Positions 18,026 to 29,189 of a stretch of 64,000 nucleotides of DNA are shown here, piece after piece. How positions within the stretch are numbered: the first letter of the stretch is position 1; every line of letters starts with the position of its first letter. Source of the stretch: Candidatus Eiseniibacteriota bacterium (GTDB lineage Bacteria; Eisenbacteria; RBG-16-71-46; CAIMUX01; VGJL01). Below the pieces are notes generated by a model. That model saw only the letters and a list, made by a program, of their open reading frames with translations, did no database searches and was not told where the DNA came from. Where the stretch lies: assembly GCA_963792585.1 (NCBI GenBank), contig CAWBWI010000003.1, forward strand, positions 768,001-832,000, in the 5' to 3' direction. A program made the position numbers and the translations under genes.

Positions 18026-18087
18026 GTTCGCGAGACTACCATGCGGGTCCGCCGAGGACTAGAATGGGAGACGAGGAGAAAAGGACC

Positions 18088-19092
18088 ATGGCGCTCAGCG
18101 CACGCAAACACCCGGACTATCCATTCCGGGACGAACACCTGGAGGCGACGATCCGTCTCGTCGATACCTTCCATGCCGACCCGCCGCTCTCTCCGATCGA
18201 GCGGGGCGAGGTGCTCGAGTTCGTGCGCATGACGCACCAGTACGCCTTCCTCGAGAGGTTGATTCAGGGAGAAGTGCGCTTCGAGCTGCCCGCCCATTTG
18301 GGTCAGATCAGGCAGACGTATCCGTCGATCGAGAAGCAGGCGGAGGAAGTGGCCGCGGCCGAGCGCAGCTTGCTGGGATTAGGCCTGGAGCCGGCCGAGG
18401 ACCTGCCCGAGGCGCTCGACGATCGCGGGATCAAGGTGCTCCGGCGCGACCGCGGGCCCGAATCGCCGGAGACGTTGACCGGCGGGTTCCACTATCCCGG
18501 CGTGCACGGCCCCGCAATCCTCGTCGGCGCGGTCGAGAAGAGCCGTGACGCCATCTTCATCCTCGCCCACGAATACGGCCACCTCGTGATGGACGTGGAT
18601 CCCTACGAAAGCCGCTTCTGCCGCTGGCGCCTCCACGATCTCGAGAACGCGAATCCCTCGAAGGAAGAACGGCGCGCCGACCGCTTCGCGCGCGCGCTGC
18701 TCCTGCCCGAGAAGACCGTTCGGGAATGTTGCGGGAGCGTCGGCGCGGAAGAGCACTCACCCGAGGCGATCGGGCGGGGGGCGGAGGTCTTCGATGTCTC
18801 GCCCGCGCTTCTCTGGCGGCGGCTCGAGGACTTGAAGCTAACACGGCCGGCGGAAGCCCCGCCCGTGGGCGGCCGCAGGCGCCACAAGGTCGACGAGCTG
18901 CGCCCGACCGACCTGCCCGAGCGCTTCGTGAACCTCGCCCTCGCGGCCTACGCCGGGCGCGTGTTCGAGATGAACGACCTCTCCCGCTTCCTGCGCGTCG
19001 CGCCCGAACGGCTGCAGAACTTCCTCACCTGGTGCCAGGTCCCGCGCGAACTCAAGCGCGAGGACTTCGTGGTGGAGGAGGAGGAAGGGTAG
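18088..19092 (+). CDS. ImmA/IrrE family metallo-endopeptidase
   Basis: FILAHEYGHL (HExxH) and ERRADRFARALLLP motifs. Confidence 0.85.
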   Translation: MALSARKHPDYPFRDEHLEATIRLVDTFHADPPLSPIERGEVLEFVRMTHQYAFLERLIQGEVRFELPAHLGQIRQTYPSIEKQAEEVAAAERSLLGLGLEPAEDLPEALDDRGIKVLRRDRGPESPETLTGGFHYPGVHGPAILVGAVEKSRDAIFILAHEYGHLVMDVDPYESRFCRWRLHDLENANPSKEERRADRFARALLLPEKTVRECCGSVGAEEHSPEAIGRGAEVFDVSPALLWRRLEDLKLTRPAEAPPVGGRRRHKVDELRPTDLPERFVNLALAAYAGRVFEMNDLSRFLRVAPERLQNFLTWCQVPRELKREDFVVEEEEG

Positions 19093-19120
19093 TTTCCTCT
19101 CTCGCGGTCGGCCGTTCTCC

Positions 19121-20101
<981 letters not shown>

Positions 20102-20195
20102 GTGTCACCTCCTTGGGTGAGGATAGGGCGGTTTGGGCGGCTCTCAAAGGCCGGGGCGGGCACGGGGAATCAGGACCTGCCCGGTTTGCCGGGCT

Positions 20196-20327
20196 CGCCT
20201 CCGGGTGTATGCCTTCGCTCGGCGCTGGCTCGCGCGCTAACGGAACGTGTCGCCTTCGGCGCCACGTTCCTGGACCGCGCTCGCGGGCGCGCAGCTCGCT
20301 ACGGCAAACACCCTCCGCTCGCCCGGT
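20196..20327 (+). repeat. ~132 bp REP-like palindromic element, copy A
   Basis: Nearly identical to the reverse complement of 27366-27497; internal hairpins such as GGAACGTGTCGCC-TTC-GGCGCCACGTTCC. Confidence 0.9.
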
Positions 20328-20366
20328 TCCACCGGGGCATGCCTGCGAGGTGGAGAGCCGTAGTCC

Positions 20367-20747
20367 TTAGCGCTCCCTTTTCCTCGCGAATTTCACGCCG
20401 GGAAAGCCCTCGAAGTCCGCATCCTGAGTCCACAAGGTCGCCCTGTATTTCTGGGATGTGGCCAGGACAATGCTGTCGGCCATGGGCAGCTTCCGCGCGA
20501 CGCTCAGTTGGGCGGCGGCCATCGCGATCGAAGAGGACAGGTCGACGACCGTCCCCTGGTGCATCAAGGCGGATGCTTGCAGGGCGCCTGCCTGACCCGC
20601 CTGCTGGAGCACACGTCTGAACACCTCGAAGATGCAGAGCGTGGGCACGATCAACCGGCTCACATCCTGAATCGGCGGAGCGAAGAAGGCACCGTTCTTC
20701 CCGTCCGCGAAGTACTCGAGCCAGCCGGAGGAGTCGACCAGATTCAT
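20367..20747 (-). CDS. vapC: VapC PIN-domain toxin
   Basis: MNLVDSSGWLEYF, PTLCIFEV, LPMADSIVLAT, LWTQDADF. Confidence 0.92.
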   Translation of the reverse strand: MNLVDSSGWLEYFADGKNGAFFAPPIQDVSRLIVPTLCIFEVFRRVLQQAGQAGALQASALMHQGTVVDLSSSIAMAAAQLSVARKLPMADSIVLATSQKYRATLWTQDADFEGFPGVKFARKRER

Positions 20748-20950
20748 ACCCGGTCGTCTTCGCGATCGACGGTCGTGTCCAGCCCCTTGAGGAAGCCGCG
20801 CATCTCTTTGATCGGACGTACTGGAATCAGCTCGATCCGATCCTCGTAGACCATGGCCTGGATCTTCTGCCCGGGTTTGAGCCTGAGGGCCTCCCGGATC
20901 GCCTTCGGGATGACAACCTGGAACTTCGGCGAGATCGTGACGACGTTCAT
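20744..20950 (-). CDS. AbrB/MazE/SpoVT family antitoxin
   Basis: VTISPKFQVVIPKAIREALRLKPGQ; ATGA overlap with vapC; GGAGGAGG RBS. Confidence 0.92.
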   Translation of the reverse strand: MNVVTISPKFQVVIPKAIREALRLKPGQKIQAMVYEDRIELIPVRPIKEMRGFLKGLDTTVDREDDRV

Positions 20951-20956
20951 CTCCTC

Positions 20957-21014
20957 CTCCATCGATACAATAATCGTATGACGTATATCGTATCGATGGA
21001 GTCATCGTATGTCA
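20957..21014 (-). promoter_or_regulatory. sigma70-type promoter and overlapping inverted-repeat operator of the TA operon
   Basis: Minus strand TTGACA-17-TACGAT; 16-bp inverted repeat with one mismatch at 20957-20972 and 20986-21001. Confidence 0.7.
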
Positions 21015-21030
21015 AACCACCATCGACCGA

Positions 21031-21618
21031 TCACCGGCGCGGCATTCGCTCGACGGTGATCGTGGATTCGGACGATGGGATGCGGGAGTTGACGCGGATC
21101 TCGGCATCCTCGACCTCCTCGATGCGAAGCGGCAGCGGCCAGCCCCCGCCCGGCGGATACAAAGATCGCGGGAAGGCGACGTACACGCTCGTACCCTTCC
21201 AGTCGGGGTAGTTCTTCTCGCACTCCCATCCCGTCGGGATCTTTGCGGGGGTGCGAACGGTGACAAGGCCGCGGTCGGTCTGTCGACCGACCCAGGATTC
21301 GACGGATTGGTACACCTTTCCGTTGTACTTGAGCCCGATGACGGGATCGATCAAGAGTCCCCCGTCCCGCTCCCATCCAATTCCGACGGGAACCCAGACG
21401 AGACTGTCCTGGGTCAGGGCCACCCTTTCGCAAAGGGTGCAGAGGTCCGGATGATCGCGTAGGTAAGCGATCTCGAGGTACATCCGACCAAACACCGATT
21501 CCGTGAGGACAACTTGGACCCGAACATCGTCGATCTGTTTGATGATCCTCTGGATGTCACGCGCATGACTCGTCGGAGCCGCCAAGCTGACGATGAAGAC
21601 CCACAATACCGGCCGCAT
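21031..21618 (-). CDS. Hypothetical secreted protein (195 aa, CxxC)
   Basis: ATG 1 nt after the upstream stop; signal peptide (SHA|R); CTLC motif; no family recognised. Confidence 0.7.
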   Translation of the reverse strand: MRPVLWVFIVSLAAPTSHARDIQRIIKQIDDVRVQVVLTESVFGRMYLEIAYLRDHPDLCTLCERVALTQDSLVWVPVGIGWERDGGLLIDPVIGLKYNGKVYQSVESWVGRQTDRGLVTVRTPAKIPTGWECEKNYPDWKGTSVYVAFPRSLYPPGGGWPLPLRIEEVEDAEIRVNSRIPSSESTITVERMPRR

Positions 21619-21619
21619 G

Positions 21620-21853
21620 TCAGTTGCATTGTGGATCGGTCGGGTACTGACCACAGTACTCCGTCTGATCCAACAACTCCGTGAAGCAGAGAAAGATGCA
21701 CTGCCAGGGCAAGTCGCAGTCGCCGTCCAGGAGGTCGGCGCAGTGTGTGGGCAGCGTCCGGGCTTCGACCCTATCGACGGTGAACGTAGAGATGGGCAAT
21801 CCCAGCAACATCAAGACCAGCAGGGCCAGACTCAGTGACCTGACGCGGAGCAT
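21620..21853 (-). CDS. Small secreted Cys-rich peptide (77 aa precursor, 6 Cys in mature part)
   Basis: AGGGAGG RBS 8 nt before ATG; MLRVRSLSLALLVLMLLGL...VEA|RTLPTHCADLLDGDCDLPWQCIFLCFTELLDQTEYCGQYPTDPQCN. Confidence 0.75.
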   Translation of the reverse strand: MLRVRSLSLALLVLMLLGLPISTFTVDRVEARTLPTHCADLLDGDCDLPWQCIFLCFTELLDQTEYCGQYPTDPQCN

Positions 21854-21917
21854 GGCATGGACCTCCCTTGTGGATTGATGACGACCGTTGGTTTCGTGGG
21901 AGGCACTGGGGTGGGTA

Positions 21918-21934
21918 TGCAATGCCCATGCCAA
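21918..21934 (-). promoter_or_regulatory. sigma54 (-24/-12) promoter
   Basis: Minus strand TTGGCATGGGCATTGCA = GG-N10-GC, matching TGGCAY-N5-TTGCW; ~65 bp upstream of the Cys-rich peptide ATG. Confidence 0.8.
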
Positions 21935-22011
21935 TCGCCAGGCCCTGCGACCCAAGGGGTTATGTGGGAGGGTGAAGTGCGGAGACGTCGCTTTTTCGTC
22001 CAGCGACTGGA

Positions 22012-24315
22012 TCAGCTGTCTAGGCGACCCGCCTTCGGGCGAATCCCAAGCTGCTTCAGGACCCGATAGACGTGCCCTCTGGAGACCCCAAGAACGGTGG
22101 CGACATCTGCTACCCTGCCGTCGCACCTTCGAAGAAGCTCGGAGAGTCTTCTTGGATCCTCGAGAACTAGGGATGGGTCACCGATATCGTCGATCAGGCT
22201 ACATGTTGGCGTCGTCTCTTGTGGTGCCCAGTTGTTGACGATCACACCGTCAGAGGTGAGGGCCGCAAGCCGCAGGATCTCCGACTTGAGTTGGCGCACG
22301 TTGCCCGGCCACTGCGCTCTTTCCATGGCCATGATCGACATCTTGCCCAACCCGGCGAATCCGGGACGGATCGTGCTGCGCGCTTCGTCTGTGAACCGAG
22401 CAATCAACTCCTTGATGTCCGAGCGTCTCTCCCGAAGCGGCGGAAGGACCAGCCGCAGACCGGTCAGTCTAAAGTAGAGGTCCCTGCGGAAGCGGTTGCG
22501 TCGCATTCGCTCCTCGAGATCGACGTGCGTTGCGGCGACGATTCTCACCTGAACCCGCTTGGTCTCGTCGCTTCCCAGCGAGCGAACCTCCCCGGAATCG
22601 AGGAATCGCAGCAAGCGCGCCTGGGAGTCTTCCTTGAGTTCGCCGATTTCATCCAGGAATAGCGTCCCGGCCTCTGCCGCGCGCACGAGACCGGTTCTGC
22701 TCGATACGGCACCGGTGTATGCGCCGCGGGTGTGACCAAAGAGCTCCGCATCCAGTAGGTCATGCGGACAGGTGGCGCAATTGAATGCGACCAGGGGACC
22801 TTGCCCCCAACGCCCCATCCTGTGGATCGCTTGAGCGAGTAGTTCCTTTCCGGTGCCGGTTTCGCCTTGGATCAAGACGGGGATGTTCAGCGAGGAGACT
22901 TGGGAGGCATCGCGCATTACGTCCATGAGCCGCCGGCTGCTGCCGAAGAGGCCATGTCGACGAGCAAGTTCTTGAAGGTGACGTCGGTCGAGGGGGCCGG
23001 ACGAGCCACCCGGAGGAGTGGCCGTGGGGACCGGATGGCTCAGGGGTGTCTCGATGACTCCATCGTCAAGTTCCCCCAGAAGATCCAGAACCCGGTCCCG
23101 TTCAAAGGTCTCGCCAAGCTCCTCGAGAATCGCAAGGGCGGAACGGAGCACCTGCTCTCCGGATTCATCCTTGCCAAGGGACCGTAGCGCCTGCCCCTGA
23201 ACCCGAAGCGCCGTCGCATGCTCGTAGCGATCACCATAGCGCTCTGCGCGCGCGCCGGCATCCTTGGCAAGCTGGAGCGCGTCGCTGACATCACCGAGCG
23301 CGAGAGCGACTTCGGCTTGGCGGCGGAGGACCTCGGGCACGATATCCCCGTCAGGGGCGATCTTGTTGGCAATGTTCAAAGCGCGACGCAATGCTGCGCG
23401 GGCGCGAATATAGTTGTGAGATGCCAGGTGAAGTTCGCCGGTGTATTCGAGAGCGATTGCCGTCCGACGAGGAGACGCCTGGCGCCGGCAAAGCCGGAGT
23501 GACTTGGCGAGATCGAGGCGGGCCTCGTCCGGGCGGTCGAGCCGGACGAGAGCGAGGCCGCGGTCGGCTCGAGCGGTGGCTTCAATCGCGGTGTCCCCAA
23601 TCTCAACGGAGAGGCGGACTGCCTCGCGGAGGGATTCCTCCGCGAACGTCAAGTGGCCGCTCCAAAGCCGTTGAAGGCCGAGGTTCAGCGTGGCCTTGAC
23701 GTACTTCCGCATGGTGCCGAGGCTTCGGTATGTGTCTCTTGCCTGCAAGAGGAGACCATCCGCGCGGGACCAGTGCCCCTCGATGCGGTCGAGGAGGGCG
23801 AGGTCCATTAAAGAGTCGGCTACATCCTCGGTCCATCCGAAGCGAGCGGCCTCATGCGCATTTCGCTCTAGTCGTTGCCTCGCCGATACGAGATCTTTCA
23901 GTCTTGCGCTGCATAGTGCCAGTAGCCCGCGTAGCCTGAGGTCATGAATGTTCTCTACTTGCCGCTCGCAGATCGCGGAGAATCGAGTAAGACATGCTTG
24001 CAGCTCTCCTGCTCCGATTAGCATCTGGGCGTCGACTAGCTGCAATTCGGAGTAGAGGTCACGGGCCGTGGGTTCGGCAACGGTCGAGCGCGCAGCTATT
24101 GCCTCCTCGACGCGCCCTTGTTTGTAGAGGCTAATAACCAAGACGATACTCGCCTCAACACCAACGTCTCCGACCTCGCAGCATGCGTTCCTTGCGTGAT
24201 CCTCCGCGTCTCGAAACGCCCCTGATTGGAGGTACGCTCGAGCCAGGCTCATTGCTCCTGGAACAACGAAGCCGGAGGTGCCTGGTCTCGATGCTGTCGT
24301 GTCTGGACGCTCCAT
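22012..24315 (-). CDS. sigma54-dependent enhancer-binding protein with N-terminal TPR sensor and Fis-type HTH
   Basis: GETGTGKE, NCA, ELFGHTRGAYTGA, TLFLDEIGEL, FRRDLYFRL, PPLRERRSDI, WPGNVRQL, C-terminal HTH; ~400 aa helical TPR-like N-terminus; no receiver or GAF domain. Confidence 0.92.
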   Translation of the reverse strand: MERPDTTASRPGTSGFVVPGAMSLARAYLQSGAFRDAEDHARNACCEVGDVGVEASIVLVISLYKQGRVEEAIAARSTVAEPTARDLYSELQLVDAQMLIGAGELQACLTRFSAICERQVENIHDLRLRGLLALCSARLKDLVSARQRLERNAHEAARFGWTEDVADSLMDLALLDRIEGHWSRADGLLLQARDTYRSLGTMRKYVKATLNLGLQRLWSGHLTFAEESLREAVRLSVEIGDTAIEATARADRGLALVRLDRPDEARLDLAKSLRLCRRQASPRRTAIALEYTGELHLASHNYIRARAALRRALNIANKIAPDGDIVPEVLRRQAEVALALGDVSDALQLAKDAGARAERYGDRYEHATALRVQGQALRSLGKDESGEQVLRSALAILEELGETFERDRVLDLLGELDDGVIETPLSHPVPTATPPGGSSGPLDRRHLQELARRHGLFGSSRRLMDVMRDASQVSSLNIPVLIQGETGTGKELLAQAIHRMGRWGQGPLVAFNCATCPHDLLDAELFGHTRGAYTGAVSSRTGLVRAAEAGTLFLDEIGELKEDSQARLLRFLDSGEVRSLGSDETKRVQVRIVAATHVDLEERMRRNRFRRDLYFRLTGLRLVLPPLRERRSDIKELIARFTDEARSTIRPGFAGLGKMSIMAMERAQWPGNVRQLKSEILRLAALTSDGVIVNNWAPQETTPTCSLIDDIGDPSLVLEDPRRLSELLRRCDGRVADVATVLGVSRGHVYRVLKQLGIRPKAGRLDS

Positions 24316-24351
24316 CCTTACTCGTGCCTATCTAGTTACAGGCCCCTATCC

Positions 24352-24726
24352 TCAAGTGCCGAATCGGCTCACAAACAGGAGGTTTCGAATCCACAAGAAC
24401 GACCACGTCGTAGGAGACGAGCAGACGTCTGCAACCGCGCTTGAACCCGCCTTGGACCACGCGGGCAGTGATGGGTATGAGGATCCACTGTCTGGATCTT
24501 CCAATCGCGTAACGAGACTTGGAGAGGTTCTGGCCACAGTTGGCACCTGTGGTGGCACTAGCTCGTTGGACCATTCATCCCCACCACCATCGGTCTCTTC
24601 TCGCAGGACGGGAGGCGCTTCGCGGCCGAACGTCCATGTCGGCAACGAAGCAACAAGGAACAGGAACAGAATGGCCGGGAGGGCAGCGATCAGGGGGGTA
24701 CGGGCCCTGTCCCGGAGCTTTTTCAT
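24352..24726 (-). CDS. Small exported/membrane hypothetical protein (124 aa), candidate pro-peptide
   Basis: GGAGG RBS; basic N-terminus plus hydrophobic stretch; acidic ETDGGGDEW segment; S/P-rich linker; hydrophobic C-tail; ends 36 nt before the EBP start. Confidence 0.65.
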   Translation of the reverse strand: MKKLRDRARTPLIAALPAILFLFLVASLPTWTFGREAPPVLREETDGGGDEWSNELVPPQVPTVARTSPSLVTRLEDPDSGSSYPSLPAWSKAGSSAVADVCSSPTTWSFLWIRNLLFVSRFGT

Positions 24727-24798
24727 AGGGAGGCAACCTCCGTGCGGCCCTGAACTGGGAGCAGGCCACATGGGAACAACCCCATTTCGACGGAACCA

Positions 24799-24827
24799 AA
24801 CATACTGGACCCCCTTCGCTCTGTCAA
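24799..24827 (-). promoter_or_regulatory. sigma70-type promoter for the pro-peptide/EBP operon
   Basis: Minus strand TTGACA-17 nt-TATGTT. Confidence 0.6.
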
Positions 24828-25073
24828 TTCCCTTAATAGGCAACGGCGACTCGGAGCCGAAGAGACGCCATTATACGGATCGGCATACTCGAGAGGCGGG
24901 CGCATGAGCCGATGCGGGTTCCCGGCAGCGATTGGATAGGCTGTTTCAAGAGATTCAAGAATCTGGTGGTTGGATCATCTGCGACGTTGCCATGGCTTCG
25001 GGTAGGTGGGCCTTCGTAGTGGGGGAGTCCGATTCGTAGTAGCTAATCCGGCAGCGCTGTCTTCGGGTCAGGC

Positions 25074-25224
25074 TCAGGACCTCCTCGCGACCCCCATCCC
25101 CAGGAGCCTCCCCCGCAACTCATCCACCGTCGGCATCGCCCGCACGAAGTCGAGGATGCGGATCCCGGTGGTGACGGCGCGGACGTGGTTATCAGGTTCG
25201 CCCGCCCGGAGATGGTGCTCGAGC
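25074..25224 (-). pseudogene. Displaced 3' fragment of the patatin gene
   Basis: Translates LEHHLRAGEPDNHVRAVTTGIRILDFVRAMPTVDELRGRLLGMGVARRS*, matching 26278-26449 with a 21-bp in-frame deletion. Confidence 0.85.
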
Positions 25225-25452
25225 CGCAGCCGCGACACTTGTCGGATCTACCTCATCGATAACCTCTTCATTGCCATCCAAGAAGCCCTCCCTGGACAGG
25301 AGGATCCCCGAATGGCGAGCGCTATCGATGGTGTTCGGAGTGGCCGGAATCACCGTTCGGGATGGTTCGGAGACCACATAGAGACGAAATCGCCCGGCGG
25401 CCCCCGAAAGCCTCCTAGGGGAGGTCCGAGCCTCTCTTGATGTCCGAAATAC

Positions 25453-25526
25453 TTGACATCGAATCTCGGGTCCCCTACCGTCGCGATGTATGAATTATTT
25501 GTCATAAAGTACGGTATACATGACAC
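25453..25526 (+). promoter_or_regulatory. Putative sigma70 promoter and operator palindrome for the membrane protein-HTH pair
   Basis: TTGACA-17-TACCGT followed by AT-rich TGTCAT...ATGACA inverted repeat (25500-25525). Confidence 0.5.
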
Positions 25527-25545
25527 AGAGATAGAGGAGGACGCG

Positions 25546-25959
25546 ATGAACCTGTCGTTTCGGGAGAAGAGCCTCTGGCTGTTGTTCGTCAGCCTGATTG
25601 TGGTTCTCGGTTTCTACTTCGTGAGGGTCCTGCCTTCGAATGCGATGAACGTGAGGCCCGATCAGGTGGCGATGTTCGTGATGGTCACTGTGGCGCTGGT
25701 GATCGTGCAGATCGTCGGACACGTCGTGATCGCAATCGTGGACCGGCGCTCGGAGACGGACGAGCGGGATCGGCTGATCGAGCTGAAAGGCACGCGCAAT
25801 GGAGGTTACGTCCTGGCGACAGGTGTCTTCCTGGCGCTTTGCGCGGCGCTGCTGACGAAGGGCAACTTCGTATTCACGCACGTGCTGCTGGGGTTCTGGG
25901 CGCTGGCGCAGTTAGTGGAGGTGGGGTCCCAACTCCTGCTCCACCGGCGTGGAGCGTGA
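25546..25959 (+). CDS. DUF2178-like small membrane protein
   Basis: MSFREK-like start, four TM segments, TDERDRLIELKG motif; adjacent to an XRE HTH gene. Confidence 0.75.
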   Translation: MNLSFREKSLWLLFVSLIVVLGFYFVRVLPSNAMNVRPDQVAMFVMVTVALVIVQIVGHVVIAIVDRRSETDERDRLIELKGTRNGGYVLATGVFLALCAALLTKGNFVFTHVLLGFWALAQLVEVGSQLLLHRRGA

Positions 25960-25962
25960 GGG

Positions 25963-26184
25963 ATGGGCAAGAGCGGCGGTCGCATCACGAACGAAATCCG
26001 GACCCTCCGCTTTCATCAGAGCGAGATGACGCAGCAGGAGCTTGCGGACCGGGTCGGTGTCACACGCCAGACGGTGAACGCGATCGAGGGGAACAAGTAC
26101 TCGCCCTCGCTGGAGGTCGCGTTCCGGATCGCGCGGGTGTTCAGCGTCCCGCTGGAGCGGGTCTTCCAGTACCGGGAGCCATGA
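25963..26184 (+). CDS. XRE/Cro family HTH regulator
   Basis: MTQQELADRVGVTRQTVNAIEGNKYSPSLEVAFRIARVF. Confidence 0.93.
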   Translation: MGKSGGRITNEIRTLRFHQSEMTQQELADRVGVTRQTVNAIEGNKYSPSLEVAFRIARVFSVPLERVFQYREP

Positions 26185-26277
26185 CGGATGCCCGGAGCGA
26201 GCGGTTGGTGAGTGTCGCATCGCAAGAGGATGGAACCCCCGGCGGCCAATCCAGCGGTGAGCCGGGGATCGAGGGCA

Positions 26278-27153
26278 TCAGGATTCTCTCGCCAGCCCCA
26301 TCTCCACCAGCCTCTCCCGCAACTCCTCCACCGCAGGCATCGCCTGCGCGAAGATCTCCTCCGCCCGGGCGAAGTCGAGGATGCGGATCCCGGTGGTGAG
26401 GGCGCGGACGTGGATATCGGGCTCGCCCGCCCGGAGATGGTGCGCGAGCGCATCGCGCTGCATCATGTCGAATGCCCCGAGGACCGAGTCGATCACGTTG
26501 GGCAGATCGGTTCGGCCGGGCTCGGGCGCGCGGCCGACGTCGACGGCAATCGTCACGTCGCAACGGCCCTTCAGGTGACTGAAGGGCATCACGTTCACCA
26601 GCCCTCCGTCCACGAGCACCCGGCCATCCAGCGCCAACGGCGGGAACACCGCCGGGATTGAGATGCTGGCCCGGATCGCGGCCATGAGCGGCCCGCGATC
26701 GAGCACGACCTCTTCGCCCGTCCAGAAGTCAGTGGCCACCGCGATGAGGGGAATCTCCAGCTCCTCGAAGCGCTCCTTCGTGATACCGCCGAGCAACTGC
26801 CGGAGGAATCGATCCGGTTTGATCATCCCGCCGTGCTTCAGGTCGGGCACGAGCGGGCCGACCCACTTCAGGAAATCCGTCTGCTTCTTGAGCCGCGCGC
26901 GCCGTCCCTCGGCATGCGATATCAGGTGCCGCTCGACCAGATCGTGGATCTGCCTGCCGCTCATGCCGGAGGCGTAGAGCGCGCCGATCAGGGCGCCCAT
27001 GCTGGTCCCTGCGATCACACATGGCTTGAGGCCAAGTTCGTCAAGCAGCTCGAGCACCAGTACGTGCGCCAGCCCGCGCGCCCCGCCCCCGCCCAAGGCG
27101 AGCCCGATTCGAGGCCTGCCGCCTCCCGGTGCGTCTGGCGGTGTCGTTGACAT
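26278..27153 (-). CDS. Patatin-like phospholipase
   Basis: LALGGGGARGLAH, GTSMG, ASISIP, LVDGG. Confidence 0.93.
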   Translation of the reverse strand: MSTTPPDAPGGGRPRIGLALGGGGARGLAHVLVLELLDELGLKPCVIAGTSMGALIGALYASGMSGRQIHDLVERHLISHAEGRRARLKKQTDFLKWVGPLVPDLKHGGMIKPDRFLRQLLGGITKERFEELEIPLIAVATDFWTGEEVVLDRGPLMAAIRASISIPAVFPPLALDGRVLVDGGLVNVMPFSHLKGRCDVTIAVDVGRAPEPGRTDLPNVIDSVLGAFDMMQRDALAHHLRAGEPDIHVRALTTGIRILDFARAEEIFAQAMPAVEELRERLVEMGLARES

Positions 27154-27156
27154 CGG

Positions 27157-27290
27157 CTACGGCCTCATGAGGAGTTTGGTGGTCAACGTCCGTGTCGGCG
27201 TTTCGACACGCACAAAGTAGACGCCGGCCGACCGTCGCCGGCCGCGGTCATCGAACCCGGATCCGGGCGACCATGCGAATCTCTCCTGGA
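27157..27290 (-). pseudogene. Orphan C-terminal remnant of an FlgD/T9SS-type-A sorting domain gene
   Basis: ...FAWSPGSGFDDRGRRRSAGVYFVRVETPTRTLTTKLLMRP* resembles the C-termini at 36887, 54071 and 60556; no upstream gene body. Confidence 0.6.
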
Positions 27291-27365
27291 CATTGACACC
27301 GCGATGAGAACTGACGGCGGATCGTCGCGCGATGAGAATACCACACGAAGCTCGATTGCCGGGAG

Positions 27366-27600
27366 ACCGGGCGAGCGGAGGGTGTTTGCCGTAGCGAGCT
27401 GCGCGCCCGCGAGCGCGGTCCAGGAACGTGGCGCCGCAGGCGACACGTTCCGATAGCGCGCGAGCCAGCGCCGAGCGGAGGCAAGCACCCGTAGGCGATG
27501 CCCGGTCGACCGAGTGTGGCGCCGCAGGCGACACGTTCCGATAGCGCGCGAGCCAGCGCCGAGCGCAGGCAAGCACGCGCAGGCGAGGCCCGATCGACCG
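27366..27600 (-). repeat. REP-like element copy B (27366-27497) plus tandem partial copy C (27516-27600)
   Basis: Inverted relative to 20196-20327; about 85 bp of it is duplicated in tandem. Confidence 0.9.
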
Positions 27601-27646
27601 GCAGGAGAGAAGGAGTGAAGGTGAGGACGCGCGACCCTCGAGCGGC

Positions 27647-28495
27647 CTACGGCACCCCGGCCCCGGGATCGCTCTGCGCGTCGGCCATCTCGCGCACGCG
27701 GATCCGCAGGAAGGGGATCGACGACTCGCGCTTCACCGGGTCGGGCAGCGGGACGCCGTCGATCGAGGCGACGGGCGCGAGCCCGATGCGACTGCTCGTG
27801 ATGAAAACCTCGGCCGTCCCGCGCACCTCATCCGGCGCGACCGGCCGCTCGGCCACCACGTAGCCCAGGTCCCTCGCCGCCAGCAGGACCGCCTCGCGCA
27901 CCACGCCGGGAAACGCCCCCTCCTCGAGCGACGGCGTCACCACAACGCCCTCGTGGACGAAAAACAGGTTGGCCGTCGCCGCGCCCACCACCCGCCCGAA
28001 CGTGTTGAGCACGAACGACTCGTCGGCGCCCGCGCGGCGCGCCTCGGCGCGCGCCGTCAACGGCTCCAGATAGCTCAGCGTCTTGTGCCGCACCAGCGGC
28101 GAGCGCTCGTTGCGCGGAAACGAGCAGGTCTTGAGACGGAATCCCTGGGTCATCGGTCGCGGGTCGAAGCCGATGAACGGCTCGGGGACGATCAGGACCA
28201 CCGCCGGATTCTTGTCCCCCGCGCGTGCCGCCACCAGGCGCAGGATCAGGTCGGGATCCCCGCTGGCCGTGACGACCTGGCGCAGGGCGGCGCACGTCTG
28301 CCGCTCGTCCCACGGGAAGGGAATGTCGAGCGCCACGGCGGATTGGACCAGCCGCAAGACGTGGGCGCGGGCGAATTCGATCTTCCCCTCGCGAACGCGC
28401 ATCGTCTCGAAGACGCCGTCCCCCCGGAGAAAGCCGTGGGTCAGGAGCGACGTGGAGGCGTCGTCGAGCAGGCGGCCGTTTACGGAGACCTTCAT
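27647..28495 (-). CDS. Class IV PLP-dependent aminotransferase (IlvE/PabC-like)
   Basis: HGFLRGDGVFETMR, RHKTLSY, ANLFFV, GVVR, EVFITSS. Confidence 0.88.
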   Translation of the reverse strand: MKVSVNGRLLDDASTSLLTHGFLRGDGVFETMRVREGKIEFARAHVLRLVQSAVALDIPFPWDERQTCAALRQVVTASGDPDLILRLVAARAGDKNPAVVLIVPEPFIGFDPRPMTQGFRLKTCSFPRNERSPLVRHKTLSYLEPLTARAEARRAGADESFVLNTFGRVVGAATANLFFVHEGVVVTPSLEEGAFPGVVREAVLLAARDLGYVVAERPVAPDEVRGTAEVFITSSRIGLAPVASIDGVPLPDPVKRESSIPFLRIRVREMADAQSDPGAGVP

Positions 28496-28502
28496 CGCCG
28501 TT

Positions 28503-29189
28503 TCACCTCTTATCGACGGTGGTGATGTTGGTGGTTCGGTCGCTCGGCATGTGGTTCCGGTCCCCCGCCTTGCCCACGTACGTCTTGCTCGCCGCGTAGA
28601 GGTGCGAGAAGAGGTGCGGGATCTCGCGCTTCGTGACCCAGTTGACGATGAAGCCGGGGATCCACTTCACGCCCGGGTCGGTGTAGACGCAGTACGTGAC
28701 ACGGGACAACGTGTCGGATGCCTCATCGACCGACCAGTACCCGCGGATCTCCCGCACGTTCCCGTAACCGTGGATCTGGTCGAAGTGCATCGTCCGGTTC
28801 GAATGATCGTTGATGACCCGAAGTCTGTACGTCCTATCGGCATAGACGGGGACACCGAGTTCATACCGCGAGATCAACGTGTCGCCGTTCTCGTACTCAC
28901 GCACGATCTTGTTCAGGCCGGGCCAATCGCGGTCCTTCTCGTTCGCCATCGCCTTCCAGATCGCCTCGCCGGGAAGACGAAGCCGGCCCTTCGCGATCAG
29001 ATGCCGCAGACCGGGCCGGTCGGTTCCCTCGATGTGGAGGCTATCGACGACCCAGCCGTGCTCTGCCAACGTTTCATTCGCGTCCCGGGCGTCGTCCTGC
29101 TCGTCGGCGCGCGCTACGATCGGGCGCAGCAGAAGAATGCCGAGCAAGGCCACAGCGAGCGTCAGACGCTGGATCCATGTTCGGTTCAT
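28503..29189 (-). CDS. Secreted START/SRPBCC-like protein
   Basis: Signal peptide (ARA|D); GYWSV...VTYCVYTDPGVKWIPGFIVNW START-like C-terminus. Confidence 0.6.
   Translation of the reverse strand: MNRTWIQRLTLAVALLGILLLRPIVARADEQDDARDANETLAEHGWVVDSLHIEGTDRPGLRHLIAKGRLRLPGEAIWKAMANEKDRDWPGLNKIVREYENGDTLISRYELGVPVYADRTYRLRVINDHSNRTMHFDQIHGYGNVREIRGYWSVDEASDTLSRVTYCVYTDPGVKWIPGFIVNWVTKREIPHLFSHLYAASKTYVGKAGDRNHMPSDRTTNITTVDKR

Follow-up and report, generated by a model that had tools for sequence, protein, structure and literature searches.

A compact gene cassette was identified in a 64,000-nt stretch of the genome of a Candidatus Eiseniibacteriota bacterium (contig CAWBWI010000003.1, G000:C3:768001-832000; hereafter the window), all features of the cassette being located on the minus strand. 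It consists of a small open reading frame (ORF A) the 124-aa product of which is predicted to be exported, a gene encoding a sigma-54-dependent activator (bacterial enhancer-binding protein, bEBP) with a sensor region of tetratricopeptide repeats (TPR), and a sigma-54 promoter in front of two further genes, ORF C and ORF D. Genome comparison indicates that the conserved core of the cassette is the pairing of the small ORF with the TPR module, which is found phylum-wide. The cassette is real and a signalling mechanism is plausible: protein A may represent the signal sensed by the adjacent TPR activator, which would in turn switch on the C-D promoter, a reading to which we tentatively assign slightly less than an even chance.

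Chance does not account for the association of the TPR activator with the small ORF. Full-length relatives of the activator (767 aa, 22012..24315) are encoded in the genomes G004 (56% identity), G003 (55%), G005 (49%), G019 (47%) and G013 (38%) and twice in G006 (35-36%), and metagenome orthologs are 63-94% identical to it. All of the seven ortholog and paralog loci that were fetched first possess a small ORF directly upstream and on the same strand. A fixed rule, by which an ORF ending between -250 and +120 nt around the activator start has to encode a signal peptide, an acidic motif of one of three types and a hydrophobic tail, was satisfied at 24 of 31 related loci. Five of the remaining seven loci have a small ORF by eye (L013, L016, L017, L043, L058), L055 is degenerate and L057 is located at a contig end without upstream DNA. 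Further loci were obtained by a profile scan of the genome contigs based on a five-row alignment (eight loci) and by a scan of metagenomes (three loci, L027 alone being assessable); the small ORF was detected at all four further assessable loci, one of which stems from the Krumholzibacteriia.

Since the rule was composed after the family had been seen, its sensitivity figure is circular, while the background rate is not. For the background, ORF ends between -120 and +200 nt around the gene start were accepted, and only 2 of the 3022 coding-like ORFs of at least 300 aa in the window's genome matched, both of them TPR activators. Among the 34 ORFs of this genome with a sigma-54 AAA+ domain the small ORF accompanies two of the three that contain the TPR module and none of the 31 that lack it. 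A hidden Markov model of 24 small proteins retrieved the two partners from the same genome (E 1.5e-15 and 9e-4) in addition to one unrelated 391-aa protein (E 3.5e-4). A check set beforehand had asked whether homologous TPR activators lack a small exported ORF, and by these counts the linkage holds throughout the phylum. The two other TPR activators of the window's genome (1034 and 1040 aa; C1:1415778-1419202 and C3:845429-848551) have the size of a TPR-GAF class of relatives; the 124-aa partner of the one on C1 carries GDGDGGDPDDY and overlaps the activator start by 54 nt.

Relatives of the TPR region were detected by a profile in 206 of 206 genomes of the phylum, a tally which includes the unpublished G072. 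They fall in two size classes, the class of approximately 1030 aa having the domain order TPR-GAF-AAA+-HTH, and the small ORF precedes genes of the TPR-AAA+-HTH type, of the TPR-GAF-AAA+-HTH type and of a TPR-HTH type without AAA+ domain (L062). In a clade the small proteins of which contain the motif GTP(F/Y)EEPE it is found beside TPR proteins with a partial AAA+ match (L036, L072, L075) or none (L044, L055, L077), one member of the clade consisting of TPR and HTH alone; these proteins lacking all or part of the AAA+ domain are possibly direct-acting or decoy receptors. As the small ORF is kept across these changes of the output domain, the partner goes with the sensor and not with the output.

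Evidence that the two partners also change together comes from G025, a genome of the same order as that of the window and of another family, in which six copies of a 276-nt module (89-100% identity) are each located 5' of a TPR activator gene. Five of these six copies were compared unless stated otherwise. Their DNA identity amounts to 0.83-0.98 from position -120 to +150 relative to the ATG (codon 50) and to 0.35-0.57 thereafter. The conserved stretch comprises a promoter (TTGCCT-17-TATCAT), which matches the place of the sigma-70-like promoter in the window, a GGAGG box, the signal peptide and AWTPPPAPLPIEPGDTDG. Among the receptors, identity is 19-44% in residues 1-300 and 71-96% in residues 300-480; assigned to the helices of the TPR model of the window's activator, it ranges from 0.16 to 0.52 in H1-H14 and from 0.66 to 1.00 in H15-H21. 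The variable DNA thus forms one unbroken block of peptide core and tail, spacer and N-terminal TPR repeats, with the constant promoter and leader on one side and the constant remainder of the receptor on the other. All six cores following GDTDG differ from each other (MDDDLLNDRP, QPFELPDRP, QIYDFPDRP, MDDDDHELSRP, KDFDDYEYDRP and QDWDDMELNRP). Peptide core and N-terminal TPR repeats of G025 therefore diversify together. Two receptors of G025 (L069 and L070; G025:C4 and G025:C15), although complete as ORFs, have just 656 and 516 aa, and the receptor of the sixth copy looks broken and appears to be split over frames (L078, G025:C8:459300-463800), so that part of this paralog set may be decaying.

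ORF A (24352..24726) was described in the preliminary description as an exported ORF of 124 aa, and it is present with a signal-peptide-like N-terminus, export being predicted. Other gene callers give the same 124-aa protein (P0026 identical, P0027 84% identical). Neither Pfam nor NCBIfam assigns a family to ORF A, ORF C or ORF D, and the protein atlas places ORF A only in an unnamed cluster (0.94 with few shared features). Its predicted Sec signal peptide (approximately residues 1-34) precedes the acidic-aromatic motif TDGGGDEW (residues 45-52, 24571..24594), the candidate signal core, which lies in the region of residues 35-62 (with TDGGGDEWSNELVPP); G47, G49, D50 and E51 are invariant across six aligned orthologs, and in the G025 copies it is this region that becomes hypervariable. 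At the first seven loci the product of each small ORF starts with a basic N-terminus and a hydrophobic core, to which an AxA-like site and often (R/K)-M-x-P-P are added. Next comes an acidic motif rich in Gly (DGGGDEW, DGDGDEWP, DGDPDEPP, DGQGDEDP), and a variable linker connects it to an amphipathic helix at the C-terminus.

The same architecture was found in 38 distinct small proteins, the family ranging from 93 to 141 aa. The motif starts at a median of 25.5 residues past the hydrophobic core, and the 14 residues from its start contain 30% Asp and Glu compared with 10% overall and include an aromatic residue in 29 of the 38 proteins. An AxA-like site precedes the motif in 37 of 38 proteins according to a loose rule. 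These proteins were chosen by a basic N-region and an uncharged hydrophobic core, so the number of signal peptides among them is not independent and is rule-based only. Some members carry tandem repeats of the motif (GDPDQYANGAQGDPDQYAG in L043, L047 and L050; GDPDAFANNSGDPDAF in L049). The classes of motif are congruent with clades.

The C-terminal amphipathic or hydrophobic helix of ORF A comprises approximately residues 108-122 (24361..24405, WSFLWIRNLLFVSRF). Across the proteins the C-terminal 15-residue window has a hydrophobic moment of 0.43 ± 0.14 versus 0.30 ± 0.11 in the linkers, a modest difference. Sorting by a PEP-CTERM system was considered and dropped, since the acidic motif is located 50-70 residues from the C-terminal helix and not directly before it. 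The C-terminal segments FLWIRNLLF of the window (24361-24405) and KWIRKVVGF of L075 resemble the WIRK of the arrest segment of Bacillus MifM.

The activator belongs to the enhancer-binding proteins. Pfam assigns Sigma54_activat (PF00158, E 3.8e-60) to residues 457-621 (22453..22947) besides AAA_lid_14 and several TPR families within the first 320 residues, and the translation contains GETGTGKE (Walker A), LFLDEIGE (Walker B) and GAYTGA. The GAFTGA loop is the consensus that contacts sigma-54, and the exchange of Phe by Tyr is taken as conservative. The Fis-type HTH (HTH_8, residues 724-755, 22051..22146) matches with 18.9 bits, below the cut-off of 22 bits, compared with 35-49 bits in relatives of the TPR-GAF class. 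The claim of an intact bEBP thus stands for the Walker motifs and GAYTGA, the HTH being a weak match. In NCBIfam the activator scores below the cut-off of every named activator equivalog. Receiver, kinase, GAF and PAS families are absent from the 15 Pfam families listed for the activator, in agreement with the earlier statement that the cassette contains no kinase or receiver domain.

Also the approximately 400 aa of TPR-like helices, described earlier as the only sensory region, were confirmed by an AlphaFold2 model, which shows a superhelix of 21 helices in residues 21-412 (23080..24255) with a mean pLDDT of 89.3 and a pTM of 0.82. A Foldseek search ranked the peptide-binding TPRs of LGN/Pins first by E-value (2.5e-10), with OGT as a further neighbour and the Rap-Phr complex 4gyo_A at rank 37. 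By TM-score the best matches among the rows shown were CRL2-APPBP2 with degron (8jal_B, 0.67/0.53), 4gyo_A (0.61/0.74) and domain III of MalT (1hz4, 0.61/0.72). A sequence search against the PDB was led by designed TPR/PPR proteins, Pins/LGN, kinesin light chains and AfsR, and no RRNPP receptor was among the 60 best matches of the TPR region. The TPRs of kinesin light chains recognise Trp- or Tyr-acidic peptides (PMC6214655), which makes an acidic-aromatic ligand of the TPR region plausible and nothing more. A complex prediction of TPR residues 1-440 with residues 35-124 of the small protein, based on eight-row alignments for each and without controls, gave scores of 0.02 and 0.01 against a mark of 0.32 and counts neither way.

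Behind the activator gene a near-consensus sigma-54 promoter had been reported about 80 bp past the stop codon. The -24/-12 element TGGCATGGGCATTGCA (21918..21933) indeed begins 79 nt past the stop; it is the sole match to TGGCAY-N5-TTGCW in the 64 kb versus 0.02 expected. Agreement with all eight scored consensus positions was found for six sites of the 5.4-Mb genome, this one included. In this genome 8 of 61 sigma-54-like sites with a score of at least 7 are located within 500 nt of one of the 34 activator ORFs, so activator-adjacent targets appear to be a habit of this organism. At 8 of 23 related loci a site with a score of at least 6 lies 0-400 nt past the activator stop on the same strand, compared with an expectation of approximately 0.4, given that the two strands of the window's 5.4-Mb genome contain 437 such sites. 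At L011, the closest ortholog locus, TGGCCCGTGAGTTGCT is located 161 nt past the activator stop. To judge from these sites, the activator usually has a predicted target just downstream and the genes presumably driven differ.

Between the stop codon and the sigma-54 promoter an inverted repeat (GTCGCT-N9-AGCGAC, 21987..22007) was read from the sequence, possibly a binding site of the activator or a weak terminator. Its sequence is not conserved in L011, where a different 20-nt inverted repeat sits approximately 95-135 nt upstream of the sigma-54 site; the spacer between activator and promoter in the window could not be aligned with that of L011, and a search for a common binding site in them was negative. 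The gene rpoN is represented in this genome by a match (C1:446390-447794; L067, L068) in two pieces of 261 and 85 bits, each under the cut-off of 277 bits. The division into two pieces could stem from a frameshift or an error of the assembly, or the gene could really be split. One of the pieces contains an in-frame TAG, which bears on whether sigma-54 works in this organism.

The two secreted ORFs that had been proposed behind the promoter are found as ORF C (77 aa, 21620..21853), preceded by a GGGAGG box (21862-21867), and ORF D (195 aa, 21031..21618), the ATG of which lies one base after the C stop. Both have signal-peptide-like N-termini, and processing of C would leave about 46 residues, six of them Cys, as the mature peptide. 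The Cys pattern of C recurs in its relatives at L011 and L066. Seven metagenome relatives of D are 58-95% identical to it, and three of them match relatives of the activator in the size of their longest contig (67733, 33229 and 4879) and are thus probably located on the same contigs. In G013 a C-like and a D-like gene occur together on another contig, without a sigma-54 site. The protein atlas returned only unnamed clusters for D (best 0.82). As far as the genomes compared here indicate, the C-D pair is linked to the activator in its closest relatives only and is not part of the conserved core. Mature C contains DGDCDLPW, an acidic-aromatic stretch resembling the motif of ORF A (DGDCDQP and SGDCANP in relatives); that C could be a second signal is pure speculation.

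Protein A presumably would act as follows. It would be exported by the Sec pathway and cleaved, the acidic-aromatic stretch shortly past the signal peptide supplying the signal. The peptide released would return to the cytoplasm or take another route across the membrane, and a fragment containing the acidic-aromatic core would bind to the groove of the N-terminal TPR repeats. Binding would relieve the hold of the TPR on the AAA+ ring, the AAA+ domain would assemble and the activator would open the sigma-54 promoter behind its own stop, giving rise to C and D. On a wider scale the Eisenbacteria and at least one relative among the Krumholzibacteriia might run a peptide-pheromone system of their own, in which short hypervariable acidic-aromatic cores of Sec-exported pro-proteins are read by the N-terminal TPR repeats of sigma-54 activators and several orthogonal channels per genome originate from swaps of contiguous peptide-plus-sensor blocks, the promoter-leader and output modules on either side being constant, and the channel of the window would switch on a disulfide-rich secreted peptide; we regard this extension as possible but doubtful.

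A number of observations weigh against protein A as the signal. The topology is unfavourable, as prediction places the small protein outside the cytoplasm and the TPR activator has no membrane segment, and no importer, protease or exporter gene is linked to the cassette; two SBP_bac_5 genes elsewhere in the genome say little. With 93-141 aa the small proteins exceed the validated propeptides of RRNPP systems (21-50 aa; PMC10075063). The GC content at the three codon positions of ORF A (0.59/0.57/0.59) gives no coding signature, its 84%-identical relative has no variable core, and the conserved C-terminal helix is not accounted for by a signal function. The TPR activator at C3:845429-848551, one of the three in the window's genome, is preceded by an alpha/beta-hydrolase-like gene and not by a small ORF. 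The mosaic evidence derives from distant paralogs in another family, the window's genome having a single cassette of this type, and the near-identity of the G025 leaders at synonymous sites could reflect gene conversion and not function. On the output side, D occurs in 3 of 206 genomes of the phylum, namely that of the window, G004 (next to the ortholog, behind TGGCCCGTGAGTTGCT) and G013. Conservation of the downstream promoter, which had been named as a further check, is partial: the site is present in L011 and at 8 of 23 loci, and the orthologs in G005, G019 and G013 have neither a sigma-54 site nor C-D genes behind the activator.

These points leave room for other roles of the small protein. 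It might be a membrane-anchored or periplasmic co-sensor or anti-activator which holds the TPR activator at the membrane or releases it upon an envelope or ionic cue, a role we consider unlikely. Its signal sequence would then stay uncleaved and serve as the anchor, or the C-terminal helix would keep it on or in the membrane. The control of PspF by PspB/C and PspA provides a model for such an arrangement. Both ends of the small protein are hydrophobic, the C-terminal segment in the TPR-GAF class is uncharged and looks like a membrane span, and the acidic Gly/Asp-rich motifs (DGDGD, GDPD) resemble cation-binding loops. The joint diversification of partner and sensor in G025 would fit any pair of proteins in direct contact. 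However, the parts left in the cytoplasm for such contact would be very short (N-regions of 3-15 residues, tails of 0-4), the N-region is identical among the G025 copies with the variable part predicted outside the cytoplasm, and the AxA-like sites of 37 of the 38 proteins, by the loose rule mentioned, lie between the hydrophobic core and the motif.

Still less probable in our view is that the small ORF is merely the first gene of the operon or encodes a co-regulated envelope protein, the TPR region sensing something different, either a small ligand, as MalT does, or some other protein. The neighbourhood would in this case be conserved merely for the sake of expression. The structural match to domain III of MalT (1hz4), the matches of relatives to the Pfam family TPR_MalT, the many kinds of partners bound by TPR domains and the one TPR activator without a small ORF are in line with this explanation. 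On the other hand, the pairing outlasts the changes of the output domain and even the loss of the AAA+ domain, the background of 2 in 3022 consists of TPR activators alone, and an unbroken variable block from the peptide core into the TPR repeats as in G025 would not be expected of an operon neighbour.

A cis-acting export monitor, in which stalling on the small ORF sets the translation of the activator as in SecM, MifM and VemP (nascent chains that combine an export signal with an arrest segment at the C-terminus), appears improbable: the N-terminal export signal, variable middle and conserved-type C-terminal segment, the position 36 nt upstream of the next gene (overlapping at other loci) and the WIRN and KWIRKVV of the window and L075, which resemble the WIRK of MifM, would suit it, but the junction RNA (24290-24420) folds at -38.1 kcal/mol with a z of 0.25 versus shuffles and shows no apparent hairpin at the ribosome site, the downstream gene encodes a sigma-54 activator and no factor for secretion or insertion, copies in one genome have different C-terminal segments despite the same ribosome tunnel, and the hypervariable acidic core and the co-varying TPR repeats would be left unexplained.

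If protein A is the signal, the closest functional counterparts are the RRNPP systems of Bacillota and their phages (Rap-Phr, NprR-NprX, PlcR-PapR, AimR-AimP), in which a small gene with a Sec-type signal, as predicted for ORF A, adjoins the gene of a cytoplasmic TPR receptor that controls transcription and binds the re-imported mature peptide. The published signature (PMC10075063) comprises a Sec-secreted propeptide of 10-100 aa, a receptor of approximately 250-500 aa with peptide-binding TPRs and neighbouring genes at -50 to 191 bp. The distance of 36 nt between the ORF A stop (24352) and the activator ATG (24315) is inside this range. The tandem duplication of the motif in some of the small proteins has a parallel in Phr propeptides (PMC10075063), and the Rap-Phr complex is among the best TM-score matches. 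In contrast, the receptor of 767 aa (its TPR part alone having approximately 400 aa) ends in an AAA+ sigma-54 activator instead of being an HTH protein or phosphatase of 250-500 aa, the propeptide of 124 aa exceeds the limit of 100 aa and has an additional C-terminal helix, the candidate core is near the N-terminus of the exported part and not C-terminal, and the lineage is not Bacillota. The host belongs to a candidate phylum of the FCB group and is presumably diderm. The module had earlier been called RRNPP-like, which is in line with the gene adjacency and the presence of TPRs, both lengths and the lineage being different. By the published signature the cassette is not a member of the RRNPP group, though its mode of action may be similar.

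The hypervariable block of the five G025 copies resembles the agr (AgrB-AgrD-AgrC) and comQXP loci, where signal and sensor diversify together in a hypervariable region. In both cases one such block, with conserved flanks, extends from the gene of the signal over that part of the receptor which does the sensing. The G025 variants, however, are paralogs in one genome and not alleles between strains, the receptor is a cytoplasmic TPR protein as opposed to a membrane histidine kinase, and the block contains no gene for a modifying enzyme.

With other bEBPs the activator shares the AAA+ domain, the GAFTGA-type loop, a candidate Fis-type HTH at the C-terminus and a predicted target promoter adjoining the activator gene. 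The sensors of these proteins are GAF domains in NifA, NorR and FhlA, V4R in XylR and DmpR and a receiver in NtrC, and PspF is controlled in trans by PspA; the activator of the window differs from them in its sensor, a TPR superhelix of 400 residues, and in the small gene for a predicted exported partner. MalT and the STAND regulators such as AfsR are similar in having a superhelical repeat sensor in a transcription activator (1hz4 by TM-score, AfsR by sequence and TPR_MalT in relatives), but the cassette lacks an NB-ARC/STAND ATPase, and the ligand of MalT is a sugar without a small partner gene. The TPRs of kinesin light chains and LGN/Pins, which match best in sequence and in Foldseek E-value, have a concave groove that accommodates short linear peptides. 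The Trp/Tyr-acidic motifs recognised by kinesin light chains (PMC6214655) resemble the DEW, DPDxY and PFEE cores of the small proteins. These TPR proteins are eukaryotic scaffolds, however, and the likeness concerns the type of repeat and is silent on descent or function. In SecM, MifM and VemP, too, the gene to be controlled is directly preceded by a small ORF that has an export signal and ends in a distinctive C-terminal segment; here the downstream gene encodes a transcription activator, no sequestering hairpin is apparent and the C-terminal segment varies within one genome.

The literature search revealed no description of a sigma-54 activator with a TPR sensor and an exported partner, subscription journals being mostly outside the search, which agrees with the preliminary description, where the architecture had not been recognised as described. 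Sigma-54 activators take their input from receiver, GAF, PAS, V4R and similar domains or from trans partners such as PspA. A new input class would be represented by a TPR sensor to which a small exported partner of its own belongs. Outside the Bacillota and their mobile elements, to our knowledge, no cytoplasmic TPR receptor for an exported, genetically encoded peptide has been described, and we know of no cultured member of the present phylum. If the partner is the signal, the cassette would provide the first peptide-receptor communication of this type in two-membraned bacteria, a circuit in the style of Gram-positive bacteria. Following the G025 mosaic, a swap of about 300 TPR residues together with the peptide core of about 10 residues should re-address the channel, which would make the cassettes candidates for orthogonal synthetic switches.

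Upstream of ORF A the sigma-70-like promoter TTGACA-17-TATGTT that had been noticed initially is present at 24827-24799 of the minus strand and matches 10 of 12 positions; two sites of this quality occur in 5.2 kb versus 0.9 ± 1.0 in shuffles, which is not significant alone. A GGAGG sits 10 nt 5' of the ORF A ATG. Contigs from two RNA libraries (X19, X20), 90-95% alike in sequence, extend over portions of ORFs A, C and D and of the activator gene, and one of these contigs (21517-23043) crosses the sigma-54 promoter; as they may include DNA, neither expression nor the start of a transcript follows from them. No sequencing run was found that contains half of the stretch's words, and the search against Rfam gave zero matches at E values up to 0.1 over 19000-29000.

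The cassette is more AT-rich than its surroundings, as had been suspected, with a GC content of 61.0% compared with 65.2% for the genome. It is part of a 7-kb block (61.8% GC) flanked by a 133-nt inverted repeat with 95% complementarity and a second partial copy (20195-20327, 27366-27498, 27516-27605). A BLAST search of the 5.4-Mb genome detected no other copies of this repeat, which could mark a mobile or invertible segment. Within the block, 25074-25238 duplicates the 3' end of a patatin-like phospholipase gene (26278-27153) over 88 nt with 92% identity, 1.2 kb from the intact gene, and looks like the scar of an insertion or rearrangement; genes for a membrane protein and an Xre-type HTH protein (25453-26184) are located between the fragment and the intact gene. 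Upstream of the block, on the opposite strand, a 342-aa ORF (18064-19092) contains a Peptidase_M78/IrrE-type domain (E 2.1e-9). Directly behind D there is a VapBC-like toxin-antitoxin pair (20367-20962) with a MazE/AbrB-type antitoxin (20744-20962) and a PIN domain in the ORF 20367-21005. This pair, which is missing at the ortholog locus of G004, has a TTGACA-17-TACGAT promoter of its own at 21015-20987.

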